From the NCBI GenBank assembly GCA_937898525.1, contig CALCBC010000066.1:31101-95100 (forward strand): a stretch of DNA of 64,000 bases, read 5' to 3'. Under the pieces are notes generated by a model that saw nothing but the letters and a program-made list of their open reading frames with translations, was not told where the DNA came from and searched no databases. The position numbers and the translations under genes are program-made. Positions 27,256 through 47,572 of this stretch are shown in pieces (the stretch's first letter is position 1; each line of letters opens with the position of its first letter). The stretch comes from an uncultured Sphingomonadales bacterium. Lineage in GTDB: Bacteria; Pseudomonadota; Alphaproteobacteria; Sphingomonadales; Sphingomonadaceae.

Positions 27256-28448
27256 GCGAATCCGAGGAAATCGTCCGCGTCGCCGCCCGGGGCGATGGCG
27301 TCACCGCGTCAGGCCGCCATGTGCCGCTCGCCGCGCCGGGCGACGTGGTGCTCGCCGACGGCGCTCTGCAACCCGGGCCGCACCGCGTCGAGCCGCCGTG
27401 CCGCCATTTCGGCCGTTGCGGGGGGTGCCAGCTTCAGCATCTCGACGAGCAGTCGCTGGCGGCTTTCGTCCGCGATCGGGTGCTCAACGCGGCCGAAGGG
27501 CAGGGGCTGACGCCCGCGCGCGTGGCGCCGGCACACCTCTCGCCTCCGCGTACCCGGCGCCGGGCGACGCTGCGCGCGGTCAATGGCGGCGGACGCCCGC
27601 TGATCGGCTTCAACGAAGCCGGCTCGCACCGGGTGGTCGACATGCGCGAATGCCACGTCCTCGCGCCTGAGCTGTTCGCGCTGGTCGAACCGCTGCGCAA
27701 GCTGCTCGCGCCCCGGCGCGAACGGTACCAGGCGGAACTCCACCTCGCCCTGGCCGATCGAGGCGTGGACTGCGCGATCAAGGGACTCGCCCTCGAGGGT
27801 CTCGAGCAGACCGAGGCGATGCTCGACTTCTGCCGCGATCACGGCCTCGCGCGCCTGACGCTCGACCAGGGCTACGGCCCCGAGGCGTTCTGGGAACCCG
27901 AACCGCTGACCGTGACGCTGTCGGGCGTGCCGGTCGACTTTCCATCGGGCGCGTTCCTTCAGGCCACCGCCGACGGTGAAGCGGTGCTGGTTGCTGCGGT
28001 GCGCGAGTGGTTCGCTGGCTGCAGCAGTGTCGCCGACCTGTTCGCCGGCCTCGGCACTTTCGCCTTCGCGCTCGCCGGATCCGCGCGCGTGACCGCCGCC
28101 GAGGCCGCGCGCGACGCCCATCTTGCCTGCCGCTCCGCCGCGGCCCGTGCGCAGGTACCGGTCGAGCCCCTGCACCGCGACCTGTTCCGCAACCCGCTGC
28201 AGCCCGACGAGCTTTCCAGGTTCGATGCCGTCGTGCTCGATCCGCCGCGGGCGGGCGCGCGGGAGCAGGTGATTCAGCTCGCCGCCAGCCAGGTTCCGCG
28301 CATCGCCTACGTCAGCTGCAACCCGTCGAGCTGGGCCCGCGACGCGCGCCTGCTGGCCGACACGGGTTACCGCCTCGCCGAGCTGCGCCCGGTAGGGCAG
28401 TTCCGCTGGTCGACGCATGTCGAACTCGCCAGCCTGTTCGTGAAGTGA
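27252..28448 (+). CDS. RlmD/TrmA-family class I SAM-dependent RNA (uracil-5) methyltransferase
   Basis: CRHFGRCGGCQLQH Fe-S motif, FLQAT, DLFAGLGTF, LDPPRAG, YVSCNP, HVE. Confidence 0.9.
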   Translation: MSESEEIVRVAARGDGVTASGRHVPLAAPGDVVLADGALQPGPHRVEPPCRHFGRCGGCQLQHLDEQSLAAFVRDRVLNAAEGQGLTPARVAPAHLSPPRTRRRATLRAVNGGGRPLIGFNEAGSHRVVDMRECHVLAPELFALVEPLRKLLAPRRERYQAELHLALADRGVDCAIKGLALEGLEQTEAMLDFCRDHGLARLTLDQGYGPEAFWEPEPLTVTLSGVPVDFPSGAFLQATADGEAVLVAAVREWFAGCSSVADLFAGLGTFAFALAGSARVTAAEAARDAHLACRSAAARAQVPVEPLHRDLFRNPLQPDELSRFDAVVLDPPRAGAREQVIQLAASQVPRIAYVSCNPSSWARDARLLADTGYRLAELRPVGQFRWSTHVELASLFVK

Positions 28449-28457
28449 CGGCCAGCC

Positions 28458-29978
28458 TCAGGCGTGGGTCGAGGACAGCGCCTGCCGGACCTGCTGGAAC
28501 AACCATTCACCTGCGTCGGGCTCGACGAAGGCGTGGCTGGCGGCGGGGTAGCGGTCGATCCGCGGATCGCTTGCATCCCACGATGCCTCGAACGCCTGCG
28601 CGGTCCGGTCGCGGCCGGCGAGGAGGATCCGTACAGGGCCGGTGAACTCCGCCAGCCCGTCGCGCATCTCGCCCGCCAGGCTGCTCGGGGGTGCGGCCGG
28701 GCGCAGCGCGCGGGCGAGTCCCCCTGCGAGCTTGCGCAGCGAAACCTTGCCGGTCGCCAGTCGCAGCAGTTCCCTGGGGTCGCGCAGCTTGGCGGCGTAG
28801 CGCTCCCGGATCGCCGCCGGCGGCGGGGTGCCGTCGTCGCCCTCGATGGTCCACGGATTGGCAAGCACGAGCGCGTCGCACCCGGCGCCGCGGTTCAGCA
28901 TGAGTGCGCTCGCCGCGTCGCAGTTGCCGAATGCGACGATCTGAGAAAGCCCTGGACGCGCCGCGCGGAACGCAGCGAGCGCCGCTGCGAGGTCGGCACC
29001 GCTGTCGCGGAAGCCGCGGTTATCTCCGGTGCTGTCGCCCACGCCGCGTCTGTCGAAGCGGAAAACCGGAAAGCCTGCCTCGGCGATCCTGCGAGCGAGT
29101 TGCGCCTGGCCCGCAAAGGCGCCGGCGCGGATCTCGTTGCCGCCGGTGACGATCAGCAGTCCGGTGTCGTTCGGAGCGTCGTCGAGCGTGCCGACGAGCG
29201 TCTCGCCCTCGCACGCGAATGTCAGCCAGCGTCCTTCGACAAGCTCAGGACACCCCTCGGACACGCTCAGGGTCAGCGAAGGGTCTTCAACAGAGTGTCC
29301 TGGGCTTGCCGAAGGACCCCGAACCGCCCCCGAGACAAGCCTGGCCAGCGCGTCGGCCTGCGCCGGATCGTGATCCGGTTCGGCGCGCAGCCACAGTCCC
29401 GGTCCGCCGACGTCGGCCTGGGCGATGTTGGCCAAGGCTGCGCCGCCCGAAGGCTCGGCAGCCTCGAGCTCGCGGATCAGCTCGGCGCCGAGGCGATAGC
29501 CGGCGAGGTCAAGTCCCGCCTTCCGGCCATGCTCGAGCAGCACGTCGCGATCCTCGTCGATCCCGGCCTCCCGGCTCGCGATCACCCTCGCCCGAAGCAT
29601 GCCGCGCAGCAGCGCCGGGCCGGTCGTCGGCGCGTAGCGCACCATCGGCAGGGTGTCCGGCTCGCACAGCGCCCCCGCGCGGATCGACAGCCCGTGCGTC
29701 GCCTCGAAGTAGCGGGCGGCTGCCTCGGCGGCCTCGCGCCAGCCGGCCAAGGTCTGGTGCTCCAGCGCGGCCGGGCTCTCGTTGCAGCCGGGCAGGTCGG
29801 GCAGGAAGGAATCGATTCCGGCTGCATCGAGCCGGCGCATCAGCTCGACCGTGAAGTGGCGCAGCTTGTTGCCCTCGTCGAACAGCGCCGGCAGCACGAG
29901 GACGCGCTTCTCGCGCCCCCGGTCGATCGCCACCGTGTATTCCCGGCCCCCGGGCCCAGGCCAGGCGGCGATCATCAC
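28458..29978 (-). CDS. Fused exosortase A-associated hydrolase 2 + hydrolase 1 (two alpha/beta-hydrolase domains)
   Basis: N-half LPALFDEGNKLRH...DLPGCNES (hydrolase 2 type). C-half GLLIVTGGNEIRAG...FDRRGVGDS...GNCDAASA (hydrolase 1 type). One continuous 506-aa ORF. Confidence 0.8.
   Translation of the reverse strand: MMIAAWPGPGGREYTVAIDRGREKRVLVLPALFDEGNKLRHFTVELMRRLDAAGIDSFLPDLPGCNESPAALEHQTLAGWREAAEAAARYFEATHGLSIRAGALCEPDTLPMVRYAPTTGPALLRGMLRARVIASREAGIDEDRDVLLEHGRKAGLDLAGYRLGAELIRELEAAEPSGGAALANIAQADVGGPGLWLRAEPDHDPAQADALARLVSGAVRGPSASPGHSVEDPSLTLSVSEGCPELVEGRWLTFACEGETLVGTLDDAPNDTGLLIVTGGNEIRAGAFAGQAQLARRIAEAGFPVFRFDRRGVGDSTGDNRGFRDSGADLAAALAAFRAARPGLSQIVAFGNCDAASALMLNRGAGCDALVLANPWTIEGDDGTPPPAAIRERYAAKLRDPRELLRLATGKVSLRKLAGGLARALRPAAPPSSLAGEMRDGLAEFTGPVRILLAGRDRTAQAFEASWDASDPRIDRYPAASHAFVEPDAGEWLFQQVRQALSSTHA
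29231..29317. repeat. 87-bp palindromic REP/RPE-like element inside a coding sequence
   Basis: 23-bp arms gtccttcgacaagctcaggacac (29231-29253) and gtgtcctgggcttgccgaaggac (29295-29317) are inverted repeats matching at 21/23. The 41-bp spacer holds a degenerate inner copy. Length is a multiple of 3. Confidence 0.8.
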
Positions 29979-29984
29979 CGCGGC

Positions 29985-30263
29985 TCAGCCGCCGAGCTTG
30001 GCCGTGACGAAGCCAAGCAGCGCGCCGTAGCTCTCGAGCATCTCGCCATCGACCTCGTCGTCCTCGATGATGATTCCGAGCCGGTCCTCGATTTCGGTCA
30101 GCAGGCCGGCGACCGCCATCGAATCGAGTTCGGGCAGGTGGCCGAACAGCCCGCTATCGGCGGTGAAGGCCGCGGCTCGCTCGGGTGCGAGGCCGAGCAC
30201 GTCCTGCAGCACCTGCCGCAGGATGGTGTCGGTTTCGGATTGTTCGCCCACGGAAATCGTCAT
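29985..30263 (-). CDS. Acyl carrier protein (XrtA system-associated)
   Basis: LFGHLPELDSMAVAGLL with the phosphopantetheine Ser; acidic 92-aa protein. Confidence 0.9.
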   Translation of the reverse strand: MTISVGEQSETDTILRQVLQDVLGLAPERAAAFTADSGLFGHLPELDSMAVAGLLTEIEDRLGIIIEDDEVDGEMLESYGALLGFVTAKLGG

Positions 30264-30290
30264 CGGTCGGCCCCTCGTTCGCGCCGCCCC

Positions 30291-31277
30291 CTAGCCAGCG
30301 GCGCGTCGTGAAACAAGCTTGCGCGCGAGCCCCTTGGCCAGCGCGAACCAGTTGCGCGGGTTGCCGGGACGGAAGCAGTCCAGCCGCCAGCGCGGCCGCA
30401 CCTGCTCCATCCAGTCGCGCTTGTAGGGGTCGTCTCCGGTGCCGAAATCGACCCATTCGACGCGGTCGCGGTCGATCACATGCTCGAACAGCGCGGCACT
30501 GAGCGTCGTACCTGCCGACAGCGGCCGTGCGCTCTCCAGATGGGCGAGCTTGTGAATGTAGGCGGTGCCGTCCTCGACCGTCCATACCTGTGCGGCAATG
30601 ACAGCGCCCTCGTGGCGCGCGAGGCCGAGCCGCAGCCGCCCGGCCGCCCCTTCGGCTTCGGCAAACCGGCGCAGCAATGCAGGATCGCCTTCGGCGGGCT
30701 TCCAGCTTTCGCTGTAAACGGCCTCGTAGGCTTCCCAGGCCCCGACCTCGAATGAGGTCAGGATTTCCACCTGGACCTTCTTCGCCTTGCGCTTGAGCGT
30801 CGTCCTCAGCGGCCCCGGGCGCGCGGCCAGGTACTCCGCGTAGCTGCGCCCGGCGACCGGCAGGACGTGGTTCGTGTCGCATGGCTCGCGCAGCACGATC
30901 CATCCAGCCTCGCGGAACGCGCGCTCGAGGCGCGTCGCGCAGCCGTTCTCGTCGGGCAGCTTGCTGAGCGTGACGCGCGAAGCCTGTGACCCAAGATCGC
31001 GGGCGAGGCGCGCGAGCAGCGCTTCGCGCGGAGCATTGCCGGTGGCGAGTTCGGTCCAGGTGAAGGCGTACCAGTTGCTCAGCGGTTCGAGGCCGCCGTC
31101 GCTGCGAACCAGGGGCAGGGCAAGCGCTTCCGGGCCCTCGCGCACCAGCGCGACCAGCGGGCGCATGCCCGACTGCTCGAGCAGGGCGAACCACTCGGGT
31201 CGCGCGAACGGGCCGCGCCCGGTGAAAGGCAAGCCTTGCAGAACGTTAACCGTCTCGTGATAGCTGACTTCCGCCAC
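30291..31277 (-). CDS. GNAT-family (CelD/BcsL-like) acyltransferase
   Basis: RTTLKRK, YSESWK, LRLGLA, AYIHKLAH, SAGTTL, DFGTGDDPYKRDWM. Confidence 0.82.
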   Translation of the reverse strand: MAEVSYHETVNVLQGLPFTGRGPFARPEWFALLEQSGMRPLVALVREGPEALALPLVRSDGGLEPLSNWYAFTWTELATGNAPREALLARLARDLGSQASRVTLSKLPDENGCATRLERAFREAGWIVLREPCDTNHVLPVAGRSYAEYLAARPGPLRTTLKRKAKKVQVEILTSFEVGAWEAYEAVYSESWKPAEGDPALLRRFAEAEGAAGRLRLGLARHEGAVIAAQVWTVEDGTAYIHKLAHLESARPLSAGTTLSAALFEHVIDRDRVEWVDFGTGDDPYKRDWMEQVRPRWRLDCFRPGNPRNWFALAKGLARKLVSRRAAG

Positions 31278-31299
31278 TACGCCGCTTCCATGGACTTCG

Positions 31300-32808
31300 A
31301 TGCCTGCGCCCGATCCCGTTCCCCGTCCGCTCGATCATCTCGCCGAACGCGGGCGTGATGAGGCTCCGGCGCTGATCCTGCGCGGCGAGACGCTTAGCTG
31401 GAAGGGCTTAAGAACCCGTGTCGGACAGCTTGCGGCATGGCTCGCAGCGCAGGTTCCGGAGAAGGGCGCGCGCGTCGCCACCTGGGCTGCCAAGGGCGAG
31501 TTGACCTGCCTGATGCCGCTTGCCGCGGCGCGCGCGGGGCTTGTCCACGTACCGATCAACCCGCTGCTCAAGCGTGCCCAGGCGGCACATATCCTGGCCG
31601 ACAGCGAAGCGCGGCTGCTGATCGCCAATTCCGGGCGTCTTTCCACGCTCGAACAGGGGGATATTCCCGAATCCTGCTGCGCCTTCGAGGAAGGTGACGT
31701 GATTGGCTCATCCAGGGCCTGCGAGATTGCACCGCCCTCGCAGGCGGATACCGGCGCGCTTGTCGCGCTTCTCTATACGAGCGGGTCGACCGGCCGCCCC
31801 AAGGGTGTGATGCTGAGCCACGCCAACCTGTGGCTCGGCGCCGTCAGCGTGGCCCACTACCTGGGCCTCGCTGACGATGACGTCACTCTCGCGGTGCTTC
31901 CGCTGAGCTTCGACTACGGCCAGAACCAGCTGCTTTCGACCTGGTACGCGGGCGGCTGCGCGGTCCCGCTCGACTACCTGGCTCCGCGCGACGTGATCAA
32001 GGCTTCGGCCCGCCACGGCGTCACGACGCTCGCCGCCGTGCCGCCGCTGTGGGTCCAGCTGGTCGAGCAGGAATGGCCCTCCGACGCGGTGGCGCCCATG
32101 CGGCGGCTGACCAACAGCGGCGGAGCGCTGACGGTGGAGCTCGTACGCAAGCTGCGCGCGCTTTTCCCTGCGGCACGCCTGTTCCCGATGTACGGCCTGA
32201 CCGAGGCTTTCCGTTCGACCTATCTCGACCCTGCGCTGGTCGACACGCATCCCACCTCGATGGGCCGGGCGATCCCGTTCGCCGAAATCCTCGTCATTGG
32301 GGACGACGGTGACGTCACGGCGCCAGGCGAGGAGGGCGAACTGGTCCACTGCGGCCCGCTCGTCGCCCAAGGGTACTGGAACGACCCGGCCAGGACCGCC
32401 GAGCGGTTCAGGCCGGCTCCGGCGGTTTCGCAGTATGGCGGCACGGCGGTCTGGTCCGGTGACCGCGTGACGCGCGATGCCGAGGGCCTGCTCTACTTCG
32501 TCGGCCGTCGCGACGCGATGATCAAGAGTGCCGGGAACCGCATCAGTCCGCAGGAAATCGAGGAAGCCGCGCTCGCGACCGGGCTCGTTGCCGAGGCTGC
32601 CGCGATCGGCGTGCCCGATCCCGAGCTCGGTCAGGCCGTTCACCTGGTCGTGCGCGGCACGGGCGACGAGGAGGCGCTGCGGGCCGCACTCAAGCGTGAG
32701 CTGCCCAACTTCATGCAGCCGCAGGTGATCCGCTGGGTCGAGCGCATGCCGCTCAATCCCAACGGCAAGATCGATCGCACGGCGCTGCACGCGGAGGCCG
32801 CTGCGTGA
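31300..32808 (+). CDS. AMP-forming acyl-CoA/acyl-ACP ligase, exosortase A-associated (TIGR03098-like)
   Basis: YTSGSTGRPKG, MYGLTEAFRST, SGD, GRRDAMIKSAGNRISP, NGKIDR adenylation motifs. Confidence 0.9.
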   Translation: MPAPDPVPRPLDHLAERGRDEAPALILRGETLSWKGLRTRVGQLAAWLAAQVPEKGARVATWAAKGELTCLMPLAAARAGLVHVPINPLLKRAQAAHILADSEARLLIANSGRLSTLEQGDIPESCCAFEEGDVIGSSRACEIAPPSQADTGALVALLYTSGSTGRPKGVMLSHANLWLGAVSVAHYLGLADDDVTLAVLPLSFDYGQNQLLSTWYAGGCAVPLDYLAPRDVIKASARHGVTTLAAVPPLWVQLVEQEWPSDAVAPMRRLTNSGGALTVELVRKLRALFPAARLFPMYGLTEAFRSTYLDPALVDTHPTSMGRAIPFAEILVIGDDGDVTAPGEEGELVHCGPLVAQGYWNDPARTAERFRPAPAVSQYGGTAVWSGDRVTRDAEGLLYFVGRRDAMIKSAGNRISPQEIEEAALATGLVAEAAAIGVPDPELGQAVHLVVRGTGDEEALRAALKRELPNFMQPQVIRWVERMPLNPNGKIDRTALHAEAAA

Positions 32809-34031
32809 AGCCGCTCGGGCCGATCCCCCCCGGATATGTCGCGGTCGACGGTCAACTGGCGGTCGCCGGGCGCAAGGCGAGCGAACTCGTGGACGAGGCG
32901 GGCGGGACGCCGCTGTTCGTCTACTCGGCCGACCTGATCCGGCAGCGTGTGACGGCGCTGCGCGAGGCGATGCCCCGGCAGCTGCGGATTCACTACGCGG
33001 TCAAGGCCAATCCCTTCGGGCCGCTGCTCGCCCTCATGGCCGACCTTGTCGACGGGTTCGACATCGCCTCGGCCGGCGAGCTCGAATTGGCCCTGCAGGC
33101 GGGGCAGGTGCCGGGGCGGATCAGTTTCGCGGGGCCGGGCAAGCGCGATGCCGAGCTCGAAGCCGCGATCGGCCACGGCGTGACGCTCAATCTCGAATCC
33201 GAGGCCGAGGCGCGCCGCGCGCTGGCGATCGCCGATCGTCTCGGAGTGACGCCGCAGTTGGCGATCCGCGTCAATCCGGACTTCGAGCTGCGCGGCTCGG
33301 GGATGAAGATGGGCGGCGGGGCCAAGCCCTTCGGGCTCGACCAGGTGCGAGTCCCGACGCTCGCCCGTGAAGTGATCGCTGCCGGAGCAGCATGGCGCGG
33401 CCTGCACATCTTCACCGGCAGCCAGGCGCTCGATGCCGCCGCGATCATTGAAACCCAGGGCAACGTGCTCGACCTCGCCGCGCGTCTGACCGCAGAGATC
33501 GGCGCTGCGTTGCCGCACCTCAACATGGGCGGCGGATTCGGCATCCCCTATTTTCATGGCGACCAGCCGCTCGACGTCTCAGCGGTCGGCTCAGCGCTTG
33601 CCGAGCGGTTCACGCGCCTTCCCGGCGAGCTGGAAGGGACGGAGTTCGCGATCGAGCTCGGCCGTTACCTCGTGGGCGAGGCCGGCGTGTACCTCGCGCG
33701 GATCGTCGACCGCAAGGAAAGCCACGGGCAGGTGTTCCTCGTCACCGACGGCGGCCTGCACCACCAGCTGGCCGCTTCGGGCAACTTCGGCACCGTGGTG
33801 AGACGGAATTATCCGGCGGCGATCGCCACCCGCTACGGCGCCGAACCGGTCGAGGAAGCGAACGTCGTAGGCTGCCTGTGCACCCCGCTCGACAGACTGG
33901 CCGACCAGGCGTTGCTGCCTCGCGCCGAGGTCGGCGACCTGGTCGCCATCTTCTGCGCGGGAGCCTACGGCGCCAGCGCCAGCCCCTCCGCATTCCTCGG
34001 TCAGGGCCCGGCCCGCGAGATGCTCGTTTAG
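32805..34031 (+). CDS. PLP-dependent decarboxylase (Orn/DAP/Arg fold III), exosortase A-associated (TIGR03099-like)
   Basis: YAVKANP, GPGK, HIFTGSQ, NMGGGFG, ELGRYLV, GCLCTPLD, GAYG. Confidence 0.9.
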   Translation: MKPLGPIPPGYVAVDGQLAVAGRKASELVDEAGGTPLFVYSADLIRQRVTALREAMPRQLRIHYAVKANPFGPLLALMADLVDGFDIASAGELELALQAGQVPGRISFAGPGKRDAELEAAIGHGVTLNLESEAEARRALAIADRLGVTPQLAIRVNPDFELRGSGMKMGGGAKPFGLDQVRVPTLAREVIAAGAAWRGLHIFTGSQALDAAAIIETQGNVLDLAARLTAEIGAALPHLNMGGGFGIPYFHGDQPLDVSAVGSALAERFTRLPGELEGTEFAIELGRYLVGEAGVYLARIVDRKESHGQVFLVTDGGLHHQLAASGNFGTVVRRNYPAAIATRYGAEPVEEANVVGCLCTPLDRLADQALLPRAEVGDLVAIFCAGAYGASASPSAFLGQGPAREMLV

Positions 34032-42292: not shown

Positions 42293-43512
42293 GCGGGATC
42301 CTGTTCCTCGCGCACCGGCTGCCGTTCCCCCCAGACCGCGGGGACAAGATCCGCTCGCACAACCTGCTCAAGGCGCTGGCGAAGCTGGCTCCGGTGCATG
42401 TCGGGTGCTTTGCCGAAACGCGGGCCGATCTCCACGCGGCGACCGAACTTGCCGGGATTGCCGCGAGCTACTGCATGCCGCTGCGAACGAAATCTCTGCC
42501 CCTCGCGGGGATCGAGGCGTTGCTGCGCGGGGAGCCGGTCAGCCTTGCCGCCTTCCGCCACCCGAAGCTCGCCGGCTGGGTCGCACGCACGCTGGCGGAG
42601 CAGGACGTCGACACGATCTACGTGTTCTCGGGCCAGATGGGGCAGTACGTGCCCGACGACTGGCCCGGGCGGGTCATCGTCGATCTGGTCGACGTCGATT
42701 CGGCCAAGTTCGAAGCCTATGCGCGCGACGCGCGGTGGCCGATGAGCGCGGTCCACGCTCGCGAGGCGAGGTCCCTCCGCGCCGAAGAAGCCCGGCTCGT
42801 CGCGCGGGCCGACCGGACACTGCTGATCAGCGACGCCGAAGCGGCGTTGTTCAGGAGCCGCGTGCCGGCGTCGTGCCATGGGCGAATCGCGGTGCTCGGC
42901 AACGGCATCGATCACGACCGTTTCGACCCCGCCTGGGTCGAGCCCCATCCGGCGCTCTCGGCGCCCGGTCCGCACGTCGTTTTCACCGGGCAGATGGATT
43001 ATCCGCCCAACGTCGAGGCGGCCCGGCGAGGGGCCGAGCGGCTGATGCCGCGCATCCGCGCCGTGCATCCGGAGGCACGGTTCCACCTGGTCGGCCGGGC
43101 GCCGGTGGCCGAGGTGCGGGCACTCGACGGTATCAACGGTGTGCGCGTGTGGGGCGAAGTGCCCGACGTGCGCCCGTTCCTTGCCGGCGCAGACGTCGTG
43201 CTTGCCCCGCTGGCGATCGCCCGCGGCGTGCAGAACAAGGTGCTCGAGGCGATGGCCATGGCGCGCCCGGTCGTGCTCACCCCCGAGGCGGCAACCGGGA
43301 TCGCTGCCGAGGACGGCGTCCACTTCGCCGTCGGCGGCAACGACGAGGCCCTGGCCGCGCGCATGCTGGAGCTGGTCGCCGATCCGGCGAACGCGCGGGT
43401 GATGGGCGAGGCGGCCCGGCGGCGGGTGATCGAGCGGATGGGCTGGCCCGCGATGCTGGCCGAACTGCCCGAGATTGTCGGACTGGGCCCGGAGCGGCGC
43501 GATGCCGCCTGA
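42289..43512 (+). CDS. GT4-type glycosyltransferase, XrtA system (TIGR03087-like)
   Basis: HRLPFPPDRGDKIRS, DLVDVDSAKF, FTGQMDYPPN, RGVQNKVLEAMA. Confidence 0.9.
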   Translation: MSGILFLAHRLPFPPDRGDKIRSHNLLKALAKLAPVHVGCFAETRADLHAATELAGIAASYCMPLRTKSLPLAGIEALLRGEPVSLAAFRHPKLAGWVARTLAEQDVDTIYVFSGQMGQYVPDDWPGRVIVDLVDVDSAKFEAYARDARWPMSAVHAREARSLRAEEARLVARADRTLLISDAEAALFRSRVPASCHGRIAVLGNGIDHDRFDPAWVEPHPALSAPGPHVVFTGQMDYPPNVEAARRGAERLMPRIRAVHPEARFHLVGRAPVAEVRALDGINGVRVWGEVPDVRPFLAGADVVLAPLAIARGVQNKVLEAMAMARPVVLTPEAATGIAAEDGVHFAVGGNDEALAARMLELVADPANARVMGEAARRRVIERMGWPAMLAELPEIVGLGPERRDAA

Positions 43513-44518
43513 CGGGCTCGCCCTGCAGGCGGCGCCCCAGGAGCGGGGCCTGCCCGAAGCCTGGCGCGCGTCGCTGTCGCGGCTCGCCCTTGCATGGATC
43601 GCGCTCGCCGCGCTCGCGTGGGACGCGTGGGCGGAAATGGCGCACCAGTGGTGGGACGTCTCGACCTACAACCACATCCTGCTGGTCCCGCCGATCCTCG
43701 CGTGGCTGGTCCGGCTGCGCTGGTCCGCGCTTCGCCGGCTTGATCCCGTTGCCTGGTGGCCCGGGCTCTTCGCAGTCGCGGCCGGACTGCTGGCGTGGTT
43801 CGCCGGCACAGCGCTGGACGTCAATCTCGTCGCCCAGTTCGGCGCCGTGCTCATGCTGCAGGGCGCGGCGGTCGCGCTCCTCGGGCCGCGGGTGACCGCC
43901 GGGCTGCTGTTCCCGCTCGGCTACATGCTGTTCCTCGTGCCGTTCGGCGACGAGATCGTTCCTGTGCTGCAGCGGATCACCGCCGAGATGGCGGTCAGCC
44001 TCACGCTCGCGAGCGGTGTCCCCGCGGTGATCGACGGCGTGTTCATCGACACGCCGGCCGGGCTGTTCGAGGTCGCCGAGGCCTGCTCGGGAGTGAAGTT
44101 CCTCGTCGCCATGATCGCGCTCGGCACGCTCGTTGCGCACCTGTGCTTCGCCAGCTGGAAACGACGGGCCGTCTTCCTGTCGGTCGCGGTCGTCGTCCCG
44201 GTGCTCGCCAACGGGGTACGCGCCTGGGGGACGATCTACGTCGCCCAGTCGCATGGGATCGAGTTCGCGGCGGGGTTCGATCACATCGTCTACGGCTGGA
44301 TCTTCTTCGCGCTGGTGATGACGGCGCTTCTCGGCTTCTCGTGGCGGTTCTTCGACCGCTCGCCCGATGACCCGCTGGTCGACCTTGACGCGATCGAAGC
44401 CTCGCCAGCGATAGGCCCTCTTGCGAAGTACGAAGTCCACGGCCGACCGGCGCTGCTCGCCATCCTTGCGCTGGCCGCGGCCGGAGTGTGGATGGACCAT
44501 TCGCTGCCGCTTCCCTAA
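43502..44518 (+). CDS. xrtA: Exosortase A (EpsH family) without a C-terminal EpsI domain
   Basis: Multi-TM protein with catalytic triad contexts VAEACSG (Cys), NGVRAW (Arg) and DHIVYGW (His). Ends after about 338 aa. Confidence 0.88.
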   Translation: MPPDGLALQAAPQERGLPEAWRASLSRLALAWIALAALAWDAWAEMAHQWWDVSTYNHILLVPPILAWLVRLRWSALRRLDPVAWWPGLFAVAAGLLAWFAGTALDVNLVAQFGAVLMLQGAAVALLGPRVTAGLLFPLGYMLFLVPFGDEIVPVLQRITAEMAVSLTLASGVPAVIDGVFIDTPAGLFEVAEACSGVKFLVAMIALGTLVAHLCFASWKRRAVFLSVAVVVPVLANGVRAWGTIYVAQSHGIEFAAGFDHIVYGWIFFALVMTALLGFSWRFFDRSPDDPLVDLDAIEASPAIGPLAKYEVHGRPALLAILALAAAGVWMDHSLPLP

Positions 44519-46594: not shown

Positions 46595-47572
46595 ATGGAC
46601 CGGCTTTCCGGTCATTTGGACCGTACTGAAGAAAACCTGTCGCATGGCGATGAGGGCGTTTTCGAGTTCGGGGGCGGTGACGAGCACCTCGTCGAAGAGA
46701 ACCGCCTTCACTCGGCCATTGATCGGCAGCTGTTCGAGCTGACCGAGCTCGATGTCCTCTACCGTGCCAGCGATGCCACGCTGTGGACTTTCATGCGGCC
46801 CGAGGGTCGGCCGAGCTTCACGCCCTCGATGCTTCACGATTTCGAGGCGTGGCAGCGGCTCATCGTCGAGAACTTTGGCCCGGGCCAGGTCCCGCTGCGC
46901 TACCTGATCCTCGGCAGCCGGTCTCCCGGCGTGTTCTGCTTCGGCGGTGACCTTTCGCTGTTCGAGCGATTGATCCGGACCGGCGACCGCGACGGGCTGG
47001 CCCGTTACGGCTATCGCTGCGTCGAGATTCTCCATCGCAACATGCATTCGCTCGACCTGCCGATGCTGACGATCGGCCTGGTCCAGGGCGCGGCACTCGG
47101 CGGAGGCTTCGAGGCGCTGCTGTCGTTCGACTACATTGTCGCCGAGCGCGATGCGACCTTCGGCCTGCCCGAGATCCTGTTCGGCCTCTTCCCCGGCATG
47201 GGCGCGCATGCGATTCTCTCGCGCAAGCTGGGCACCGCCATGGCCGATCGGTTGATCGTGTCGAACCACACCTACACCGCCGAAGAGATGTACGAGCTCG
47301 GCCTCGTTCACCACCTCGCGGAGCCCGGCGCGGGCCTGGCCGCTTGCGAGGAGTTCATCCGCAAGTGCGAGCGGCGCCATCCGGGTCTCGTCAATTCGCG
47401 CAAGGCAATGAAGCTGACCAACCCCATCGGGCTCGGCGAATTGAAGCGTATCGTCGACCTCTGGGCCGACGCCGCGCTGCAGCTCTCCGACGGCGACCTC
47501 AAGGTCATGAACCGCCTGACCCGCGCTCAGGAACGCGTGGGCGATCGCGCCGTCGCCGATCGTGCCGCCTGA
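46595..47572 (+). CDS. rpfF: RpfF-like DSF synthase (crotonase/enoyl-CoA hydratase superfamily)
   Basis: FCFGGDLSLFERLIRTGDRDGL, VQGAALGGGFEA, GLPEILFGLFPGMGA, IVDLWADAALQL, MNRLTRAQ closely parallel the motif series of Xanthomonas/Burkholderia RpfF. Confidence 0.8.
   Translation: MDRLSGHLDRTEENLSHGDEGVFEFGGGDEHLVEENRLHSAIDRQLFELTELDVLYRASDATLWTFMRPEGRPSFTPSMLHDFEAWQRLIVENFGPGQVPLRYLILGSRSPGVFCFGGDLSLFERLIRTGDRDGLARYGYRCVEILHRNMHSLDLPMLTIGLVQGAALGGGFEALLSFDYIVAERDATFGLPEILFGLFPGMGAHAILSRKLGTAMADRLIVSNHTYTAEEMYELGLVHHLAEPGAGLAACEEFIRKCERRHPGLVNSRKAMKLTNPIGLGELKRIVDLWADAALQLSDGDLKVMNRLTRAQERVGDRAVADRAA

Follow-up and report, generated by a model that had tools for sequence, protein, structure and literature searches.

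A palindromic repeat at the junction of two fused exosortase-A-associated hydrolase genes in an uncultured Sphingomonadales bacterium

In-frame hairpin repeats are known from Rickettsia and other organisms, and are usually seen as neutral passengers in existing genes. A locus in a 64,000-nucleotide stretch of an uncultured Sphingomonadales genome (the window) raises the question of whether such a repeat can also join two genes into one. The preliminary description of the window had reported a single 506-aa open reading frame (ORF) on the minus strand at 28458-29978, in which two exosortase-associated hydrolases are joined by an in-frame palindromic element. This ORF is indeed present, with the 87-bp element and its 23-nt arms at the domain junction, and the translation of the element, RGPSASPGHSVEDPSLTLSVSEGCPELVEG, agrees with the peptide given there. 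The features are as follows.

28458..29978, minus strand: fused ORF, 506 aa (hydrolase-2-like half, repeat-derived linker and hydrolase-1 half)
29322..29978, minus strand: hydrolase-2-like alpha/beta-fold half, aa 1-219 (TIGR03101, 51 bits; elbow alignment)
29231..29317, unstranded: family-A palindromic repeat element, 87 bp, linker aa 220-249 (repeat search, arm counts, hairpin energy)
29295..29317, unstranded: arm lying 5' in the coding direction, minus strand GTCCTTCGGCAAGCCCAGGACAC (2 mismatches to the other arm)
29231..29253, unstranded: arm lying 3' in the coding direction, plus strand GTCCTTCGACAAGCTCAGGACAC (family core matched exactly)
28461..29231, minus strand: hydrolase-1 half, aa 250-506 (TIGR03100, 229.8 bits; junction alignment)
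29985..30263, minus strand: acyl carrier protein (ACP) gene, upstream in the same cassette (weak ACP matches; PP-binding in syntenic homologues)
30291..31277, minus strand: acetyltransferase-like cassette gene (Acetyltransf_6 / FemAB-type), 328 aa (PF13480 in syntenic homologues)
31300-32808, plus strand: exosortase-A-associated acyl-CoA ligase, divergent (TIGR03098, 637 bits)
32805-34031, plus strand: PLP decarboxylase, divergent (TIGR03099, 576 bits)
43475..44518, plus strand: exosortase A (XrtA), which defines the locus (TIGR03109, 328 bits)

The likelier start of the fused ORF is the ATG at 29975 (505 aa in the database copy, P0001), and the predicted product has a mass of about 53 kDa. 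NCBIfam matches follow in the order hydrolase 2 (aa 19-174) and hydrolase 1 (aa 251-502), with the element exactly between them, and the junction of the predicted protein reads LVSGAVR/GPSASPGHSVEDPSLTLSVSEGCPELVEGR/WLTF. The surroundings are those of an XrtA/PEP-CTERM EPS locus, since eight gene types (XrtA, chain-length determinant, exporter, ATPase, deacetylase, amidotransferase, ligase and decarboxylase) score above their profile cutoffs within 16 kb.

The hydrolase-1 half scored 229.8 bits against TIGR03100 (cutoff 168.45; profile positions 4-273 of 274) and lacks a start codon of its own (RWLTF, versus MSRRHLTF in relatives). Across 41 sequences, its G351-x-C353-D354, D457 and H482 do not vary; C353, D457 and H482 form the putative catalytic triad, and the modelled hydrolase 1 combines this conserved triad with a predicted alpha/beta-hydrolase fold. 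The other half reached 51.4 bits against TIGR03101, below the cutoff of 202.75 (profile positions 21-192 of 266), and is thus called hydrolase-2-like. It is probably non-catalytic, because Arg occupies the nucleophile position (..S-I-R-A-G-A-L..). In comparison with G013, a close relative with the same fused ORF at 90% identity, omega was 0.24 for hydrolase 1 and 0.47 for the hydrolase-2-like half; as judged from these ratios, purifying selection is acting on both enzyme halves. In the AlphaFold2 model of the fused protein (mean pLDDT 90, pTM 0.89; hydrolase-2-like half above 85), residues 227-245 alone fall below 50, and the two halves are predicted to pack confidently, with only the linker disordered. 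A Foldseek search with this model returned generic esterases and lipases, a sequence search of the PDB gave one weak match (aclacinomycin methylesterase), and a literature search on exosortase A, hydrolase 1 and hydrolase 2 yielded no relevant paper.

The element makes up nearly the entire inter-domain linker, as had been supposed. An inverted-repeat search found its 23-nt arms to be complementary at 21 of 23 positions (91%), with 41 nt between them, and the arm sequence at three or fewer mismatches occurs at two places in the window, both within the element, and at none in 100 shuffles. The RNA hairpin has a folding energy of -58.3 kcal/mol (z -6.1). A scan of 28300-31400 for terminators and promoters detected nothing, and thus the element is no intrinsic terminator here. 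The element is shifted by one base relative to the codon boundaries; the resulting 30-aa peptide has a pLDDT of 42-58 and no secondary structure in the AlphaFold2 model. The linker of G013 shows 10 substitutions and no stop, and omega for the linker is about 1.6; by this measure, evolution of the linker peptide is neutral. The earlier proposal that a selfish repeat was recruited as a linker is therefore borne out as to the origin of the linker, but the word recruited claims too much about function.

The CTTCGACAAGCTCAGG-type palindrome had been taken for a mobile intergenic repeat, and in this genome it is indeed dispersed and mostly intergenic. The family-A arm motif (GTCCTTCGACAAGCTCAGGAC; arms begin GTCCTTCGAC and finish GTCGAAGGAC) has 35 matches at about 25 loci, versus 0 in the shuffled genome, so that the family is multi-copy and not a single insertion. 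Copies were found after stop codons, before start codons and beside a tRNA; 12 have paired arms, and a coding-type ORF spans the junction copy only. A looser search with a 15-mer of the arm (two or fewer mismatches) gave single-arm chance matches within genes, and 5 in shuffled sequence, and was for that reason kept out of the copy counts. Relatives within the genus also carry multiple copies of family A, as do members of no fewer than 11 other alphaproteobacterial families. With terminal inverted repeats, a short non-coding core, a length within the 70-200 bp range and many copies, it has the build of a MITE. Visual inspection of about 12 intergenic copies and of the junction copy showed no target-site duplication, and neither the GTAG nor the CGTC tag of REP / REPIN was visible in the family-A copies inspected. 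An Rfam search (E-value mode) with ten canonical copies returned the neighbouring tRNA alone, which means that family A corresponds to no described RNA family, and a full-text literature search with the arm sequence gave unrelated primer matches only.

What stood at this position before the insertion can be read from the relatives. Some 40 related Sphingomonadales genomes encode hydrolase 2 (about 220 aa) and hydrolase 1 (about 255 aa) as two distinct neighbouring genes, in line with the preliminary description, and the two lie in different frames, the hydrolase-2 stop overlapping the hydrolase-1 start as (A/G)TGA. This overlap is what an alignment of the junction reveals in the relatives, most of which have no fused linker. 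In 14 loci of the genus, the site is empty (..A*/(A/G)TGA..), and hydrolase 1 begins at MSRRHLTF in another frame. The comparison of these aligned loci shows separate, overlapping genes to be the ancestral Sphingomonadales arrangement. A consistent Shine-Dalgarno sequence upstream of the hydrolase-1 start was absent from the unfused genomes.

The distance between the motifs WLRAEP and GGNEIR is 170-185 nt in the approximately 40 unfused genomes, and is 2 mod 3 in all except G321 (172 nt). Only in this genome (G000), G013 and G007 is it 249, 249 and 252 nt, respectively (0 mod 3). No other genome has an insert at this place, and in each of the three the genes are fused. G000 and G013 share the element and have gained a net 76 nt, since 87 were inserted and about 11 lost; G007 has gained 79 nt. 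The element takes up exactly the former overlap, and about 8-11 target bases have been lost, which include the stop, the start and some flanking sequence. No insert-bearing but unfused allele was found among 43 species-level loci, a count to be read with the ascertainment bias that the protein search favours full-length (fused) sequences and could miss such alleles. The N-termini of 18 shorter or odd-length homologues included no hydrolase-1 gene starting within a repeat, and a family-wide search of 401 genomes gave no further single-frame match among the matches listed. The length of the open frame is useless as an indicator of fusion in this high-GC clade; 14 loci that stood out by a long open frame or an odd start of the match all proved to be ordinary unfused pairs.

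The same junction has been struck repeatedly in other lineages, by family A in both orientations and by an unrelated family B. The linker of G007 is a family-B hairpin (CCCTCTCYCCTTRAGGGGARAGGG), unrelated to family A, with 17-22 copies per genome and 0 in the control. In the genome studied here, family-B repeats also lie in frame in pre-existing linkers of E2 acyltransferase and RNase R. Metagenomes contain about 20 further hydrolase fusions, and in at least 12 of these, the linker is a translated copy of one of the two repeat families; at the DNA level, the repeat is family A, in either +/- or -/+ order, or family B. All net inserts that were measured equal 1 mod 3 (tabulated metagenome values, +91, +91, +121 and +106), and five more fusion loci have a motif distance of 0 mod 3. 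The tree requires 5-10 state changes. Five family-A (+/-) alleles have the insertion point and the reading frame in common and may go back to one event or to several; an AU test on the nine family-A alleles inserted at the same site did not reject that they arose once (p 0.083).

As far as sequence comparison can establish it, the repeat-coupled gene fusion is real. To explain it, we propose, with a probability of roughly 0.7, that a hairpin insert at the hydrolase-2/hydrolase-1 overlap produced a frame-restoring fusion, which complex formation between the two proteins makes tolerable. The 87-bp repeat would have taken the place of the (A/G)TGA overlap, with loss of the stop and the start; because the net 76 nt is 1 mod 3, ribosomes translating hydrolase 2 would continue through the hairpin into hydrolase 1, and the product would carry a 30-residue disordered linker. 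If translation of hydrolase 1 needs termination-reinitiation coupling to hydrolase 2, hydrolase 1 would be silenced by any insert between the genes that did not by chance restore a continuous frame, and this silencing would explain why all insert-bearing alleles seen are in-frame fusions. The fusion may be tolerated because the hydrolase-2-like protein, probably non-catalytic, and the Cys-Asp-His hydrolase 1 act as a complex, and the linker sequence would serve only to keep the frame open. What counts against this scheme is that about 8-11 bases of the target were lost, with no sign of a target-site duplication; such a loss is atypical of simple transposition.

The order of events could be the reverse, the fusion having arisen first by a small indel and in-frame hairpin repeats having landed in the joint later, as passengers and not as the cause. 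With a length of exactly 29 codons, the element can be excised and the frame stays open, as had been noted before, which makes this order possible. The ancestral genes were out of frame, and it was the net gain of 76 nt that aligned hydrolase 1. There are also two fusions in the database that lack an insert: in P0014, one extra base merges the frames, and P0016 is likewise insert-free. Furthermore, in three fused clades, sisters carry different repeat families (P0005 versus P0004, P0006 and P0007; P0015 versus P0009 to P0012; P0025 versus P0027), which shows turnover of repeats inside a linker that was fused already, and the in-frame family-B repeats in the E2 acyltransferase and RNase R linkers point the same way. 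Nevertheless, no insert-free fused allele was seen in the genus clade, and the closest relatives without an insert (G016, G011, G002 and others) all have the two genes unfused and overlapping as (A/G)TGA. The residues flanking the element align directly to the C-terminus of hydrolase 2 and the N-terminus of hydrolase 1, so that there is no linker besides the element, and a prior fusion would require two events at one nucleotide position. We consider this order unlikely.

It is still less probable that the fusion is inconsequential for the protein because a separate hydrolase 1 is made, either from the internal GTG (V238, VSEGCPELVEG) or by proteolysis of the linker. This GTG, in frame and 12 codons ahead of the hydrolase-1 core, is shared by G013, and the predicted disorder of the linker would make it accessible to proteases. 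However, no Shine-Dalgarno-like sequence precedes the GTG, which lies within the -58 kcal/mol hairpin; the linkers of P0003, P0002, P0006 and G007 have no equivalent start codon, and their frame is nonetheless open; and internal initiation gives no reason for all inserts to be 1 mod 3. An assembly artefact with a palindrome misplaced at the junction, conceivable in a 136-contig draft since palindromes can mislead assembly, or a decaying pseudogene with an accidentally open frame is scarcely credible, because 9 studies have public compost or soil metagenome runs, 17 in total, that contain the identical 351-bp stretch in full, and the 505-aa protein is recorded, with 2 residues different, from other contigs, which excludes an artefact, while G013, a different species, keeps the orthologous fused ORF without a stop in its substituted linker, and selection on both halves and the invariant catalytic residues oppose a pseudogene.

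The proposal of a frame-restoring insertion can be extended, with the odds against the extension, to the idea that the overlap is a preferred site for at least two hairpin families, where the translational coupling of the downstream gene would let selection convert hairpin strikes into domain fusions of the general 'Rosetta-stone' kind, the hairpin perhaps being maintained as RNA. At the RNA level, the hairpin might, for instance, pause ribosomes between the domains or stabilise the mRNA. Pointing to upkeep as RNA, arm divergence is about 15% between lineages that have 43-51% divergence at synonymous sites, one arm pair changed from A-U to G-C between G000 and G013, and three more arm changes are G-U wobbles in the sense RNA.

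What would be new here is that a repeat spans two genes and gives rise to a two-domain protein that did not exist before, which is the other half of Jacob's 'tinkering'. Across lineages, two repeat families and two orientations, the junction shows this outcome again and again, and every insert falls in the one frame that leaves hydrolase 1 translated; the case would thus be a natural replicated experiment on the origin of fusions from overlapping, translationally coupled gene pairs, and genetic evidence for two uncharacterised exosortase-A hydrolases acting as one complex. A simple rule for searching whole genomes, to see how general the mechanism is, would be a repeat at a former stop/start overlap with a net insert of 1 mod 3. 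If the extended proposal is true, selfish hairpin repeats would be a recurrent general source of 'Rosetta-stone' fusions from overlapping pairs.

Among known systems, the two halves resemble the TIGR03100/TIGR03101 pair, with XrtA, EPS export genes, ACP, acyl-CoA ligase and PLP decarboxylase nearby, hydrolase 2 followed by adjacent hydrolase 1, and hydrolase 1 above its cutoff; hydrolase 2 is directly upstream of hydrolase 1 in about 40 relatives, and fused to it here. Unlike that pair, the product is one polypeptide and not two, and unlike TIGR03101, the hydrolase-2 half is short (about 220 aa), a divergent sphingomonad form with Arg at the nucleophile position. As to the repeat, PMC2229807, PMC10969869 and PMC3733652 describe RPEs and intragenic MITEs/REPs (ERIC, Correia, GTAG/CGTC REPs) that are read through in frame; the RPE case is that of Ogata et al. 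2000, as summarised in PMC2229807 and PMC10969869, and the REP case that of Di Nocera et al. 2013 (PMC3733652). The word fusion is absent from PMC3733652, and in the other two, it refers to the element's own ORF joining the host ORF. As in these cases, family A is a short, dispersed, multi-copy repeat with hairpin potential, mostly intergenic, that stands in frame in a conserved gene and is missing from orthologues, with the host frame kept; the surface or linker peptide evolves freely, and the host enzyme domains are under selection. The taxon differs from that of RPEs, and the sequence family probably does too; neither the taxon nor the arm sequence corresponds to anything returned by the Rfam and full-text literature searches. 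Those accounts place the repeats inside one gene that already existed; here, by contrast, the element took the place of an overlap between the stop of one gene and the start of the next, with a two-domain fusion as the result, and the same junction was struck recurrently by two unrelated repeat families.

The fused gene and the palindrome within it lie in the window as follows.

28458-29978, minus strand: fused ORF of 506 amino acids in a single frame
29231-29317: palindrome of 87 bp between the two hydrolase segments, with arms of 23 nt (21/23 complementary) spaced 41 nt apart

With NCBIfam models, the N-terminal hydrolase-2-like segment (aa 19-174) scored 51 bits for TIGR03101, well under the cutoff of 202.75, and a full-length hydrolase 1 (aa 251-502) scored 229.8 bits for TIGR03100, over the cutoff of 168.45. 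The 87-bp element with 23-nt inverted arms that the preliminary description placed at the domain junction indeed lies between these segments. It is translated as RGPSASPGHSVEDPSLTLSVSEGCPELVEG, and as RNA it forms a hairpin of -58.3 kcal/mol (z = -6.1); no terminator-like site was found at the palindrome, and no T-run follows the hairpin. The surrounding genes form a genuine exopolysaccharide cluster of the XrtA/PEP-CTERM type, with genes for ACP, an acetyltransferase-like protein, the exosortase-A-associated acyl-CoA ligase and PLP decarboxylase, an exporter, a chain-length determinant, a tyrosine kinase, an ATPase, a deacetylase, a glycosyltransferase, XrtA and an amidotransferase. An artefact was excluded: the stretch (351 bp) occurs complete in 17 metagenome runs, of compost and soil, that belong to 9 studies.

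In a whole-genome search of 40 relatives, nearly all gave two matches, one for each half and in different frames, as expected from the earlier statement that these hydrolases are usually separate neighbouring genes. The proposed alignment of the junction with relatives revealed a separate stop and start at the junctions without an insert (empty sites): hydrolase 2 ends in ...LWLRAEPDHDPAQA-ALA-x9-A* in the translated junctions, its stop TGA overlaps the hydrolase-1 start as (A/G)TGA, and hydrolase 1 begins with M-S/N/T-R-R-H-L-T-F-x-C-E-G. No consistent Shine-Dalgarno motif was found upstream of the hydrolase-1 start at empty sites. In overlapping bacterial genes, a stop/start overlap without a Shine-Dalgarno sequence is a signature of termination-reinitiation coupling; from these two features we infer, by analogy, that the hydrolase pair is coupled in this way. 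Measured between the motifs W-L-R-A-E-P in hydrolase 2 and G-G-N-E-I-R in hydrolase 1, the distance was 170-185 nt in about 40 distinct genomes, and 2 mod 3 in all except G321 (172 nt). Only in the source genome (G000), its close relative G013 and another relative, G007, was it 249, 249 and 252 nt, respectively (0 mod 3). Fourteen more odd-looking loci from a 401-genome family search, among the matches listed, were all plain unfused pairs.

In alignment with the empty sites, the sequence of the filled allele runs ...ALARLVSGAV, then R-element-G, then RWLTFACEGE.... The hydrolase-2 tail extends to the former stop position, the element stands in place of about 8-11 nt including the ATGA, and hydrolase 1, which has no start codon left, picks up at its own codon two or three. 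The net change in G000 is +76 nt (1 mod 3), which is exactly the shift by which the downstream gene, in the -1 frame, joins the frame of the upstream one. The earlier remark that the frame stays open after excision of the element is true, but it conceals that the ancestral genes were out of frame.

The palindrome belongs to a dispersed family of repeats, here called family A. The 19-nt arm core, CCTTCGACAAGCTCAGGAC, had 35 matches (up to 3 mismatches) at about 25 loci of the 3.2-Mb source genome and none in the shuffled genome; the repeat is multi-copy and mostly between genes, as the preliminary description had supposed. A typical copy has the left arm (G)TCCTTCGACA(A/G)GCTCAGGA(C/T)GAGCGG, a middle of 40-90 variable nt and the right arm CCGCTC(A/G)TCCTGAGC(T/C)TGTCGAAGGA(C), and copies stand straight after stop codons, ahead of start codons or beside a tRNA gene. 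Among the 12 two-armed copies, only that in the hydrolase gene lies within an ORF whose GC3 is of coding type to either side of the repeat. Motif matches numbered 76 in G001, 29 in G016 and about 20 each in G013 and G007, all genus relatives (controls, 1-5); outside the genus, at least 11 genomes from a sample of 120 alphaproteobacterial families had 8 to 116 copies (controls, 0-1). Family A matches no Rfam family, and a full-text literature search did not find its arm sequence. A canonical copy lies directly 3' of a tRNA gene (G000:C10:93650-94000), this tRNA being the sole Rfam match among ten repeat loci. At G000:C12:6571-6622 and G000:C94:9241-9295, the arms occur about 40 nt apart in the inverse (-/+) order, the arrangement found in linkers of the metagenome fusions P0009-P0011; these may be places where two neighbouring elements meet, or the repeat may have a second structural form.

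The element in G013 is the same; its linker differs at 10 of 90 positions and has no indel. In G007, whose flanking domains are only 62% identical and which is no nearer to G000 than many unfused species, the 87-nt insert is a different one, PQGPSLLKGKRLGKGNVATAASSPREGET. Its core, CCCTCTCTCCTTAAGGGGAAGAGG, is that of a second, unrelated hairpin repeat (family B) that has 17-22 copies in each of the genomes G000, G007 and G013, against 0 in the control. Family B is also found in frame in other genes of G000: as CCCTTTCCCCTGAAGGGGAGAGGG in the linker between domains of an E2-like protein of the 2-oxoacid dehydrogenase type (G000:C27:1168-2547, minus strand, outside the window; peptide ..AEPSPLQGKGLGEGTTAPTPAPAPEQSVPRPPTPAPE.., its frame being that also used in the linker of P0005, a fused hydrolase from a metagenome), and in an RNase R-like open frame of 983 aa (G000:C49, about 46675-46698, outside the window; ..QEPSPIHGRGVGEGQSAGAGDSAPRPPTPSPGGEAGPQGQREGE..). 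A search of a 5.8-billion-protein collection yielded about 25 full-length (fused) homologues, nearly all metagenomic, and the linkers of nine were checked at the DNA level.

Linker types of fused homologues (P, protein-database homologues)
P0002, P0003, P0004/6/7: family A, +/- arm order, insertion point and frame as in G000
P0008, P0009-12, P0027: family A, -/+ arm order or single arm
P0005, P0015, P0025: family B
A few: unrecognised
P0014 (1-nt insertion merges the frames), P0016: no insert

Four metagenome inserts were each 1 mod 3 in length (+91, +91, +121 and +106 nt), and at five further fusion loci the motif distance was likewise 0 mod 3. Parsimony on a maximum-likelihood tree built from the two domains, with the linker left out, requires 10 changes for the filled state, and at least 5 across well-supported branches. 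Linkers turn over within fused clades, as shown by sister sequences that carry different repeat families in each of three such clades. The close pair P0005 (family-B linker) and P0006 (family-A linker), on metagenome contigs L079 and L080 (JGI 3300078355 / 3300078363), has a hydrolase-1 dS of 0.39 but entirely different linkers, implying that one repeat has taken the place of the other there. Neither the 43 species-level loci nor the 18 shorter homologues inspected included an allele in which an insert was present and the genes were still separate.

The comparative data couple fusion to repeat insertion at this junction. That the genes fused first and received the repeat later could account for an element of exactly 29 codons, for the insert-free fusions and for the linker turnover; we consider this order improbable, because the closest relatives that lack an insert all have the genes unfused and nothing but the element makes up the linker. 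As for the number of insertions, a single origin of the same-site family-A group was not rejected (AU test, p = 0.083), and the right-flank codons (RRH in empty sites, RRC in P0003, RW in G000) hint, as a shared derived state, at common descent of G000, G013 and P0003. On the other side, arm divergence is only about 15% between lineages with 43-51% synonymous-site difference, and the loops are unrelated, which points to repeated site-specific insertion or arm maintenance. In the alignment of G000 and G013, an A-U pair of the arms has become G-C, and three more arm substitutions yield G-U wobbles in the sense RNA; suggestive as this is, the sample is far too small.

Between G000 and G013, dN/dS was 0.47 for the hydrolase-2 half, 0.24 for the hydrolase-1 half and about 1.6, over few sites, for the linker; thus, both enzyme parts are under purifying selection, with the linker free save for staying open. 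The AlphaFold2 model (41-sequence alignment; mean pLDDT 90.2, pTM 0.89) implies a confident mutual placement of two alpha/beta domains, and only residues 227-245, the element-encoded peptide, have pLDDT below 50 and lack secondary structure. The predicted product of the fused ORF would be a 53-kDa protein, and internal initiation of hydrolase 1 at GTG (V238) is unlikely, because this codon has no Shine-Dalgarno sequence, is buried in the hairpin and has no equivalent in other fused alleles. Hydrolase 1 (28461-29231, minus strand) keeps the invariant G-x-C-D elbow (C353), D457 and H482; its elbow, invariant as G-N-C-D-A, indicates a Cys rather than a Ser nucleophile, and a putative thioesterase- or acyltransferase-like role would fit a cassette with ACP, ligase and decarboxylase. 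The hydrolase-2 half (29322-29978, minus strand) and its homologues have Arg at the position of the Ser/Cys nucleophile (x-[IVL]-R-[AGS]-G, 23/23 fused homologues inspected), and thus this half is probably a non-catalytic partner. The sphingomonad hydrolase-2-like protein, whose TIGR03101 score is just a quarter of the cutoff, resembles a pseudo-enzyme that partners hydrolase 1, and a family model of its own may be warranted. Foldseek matches were generic esterases and lipases only.

Rickettsia palindromic elements and intragenic MITEs are described as selfish hairpin repeats read through in frame and tolerated in flexible regions (PMC2229807, PMC10969869, PMC3733652). The hydrolase event is of this kind, its linker being a hairpin repeat translated in frame in a flexible region. 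Unlike in those systems, however, the hydrolase element occupies a former stop/start overlap, the outcome is the fusion of two genes, and the junction shows this outcome repeatedly, with two repeat families.
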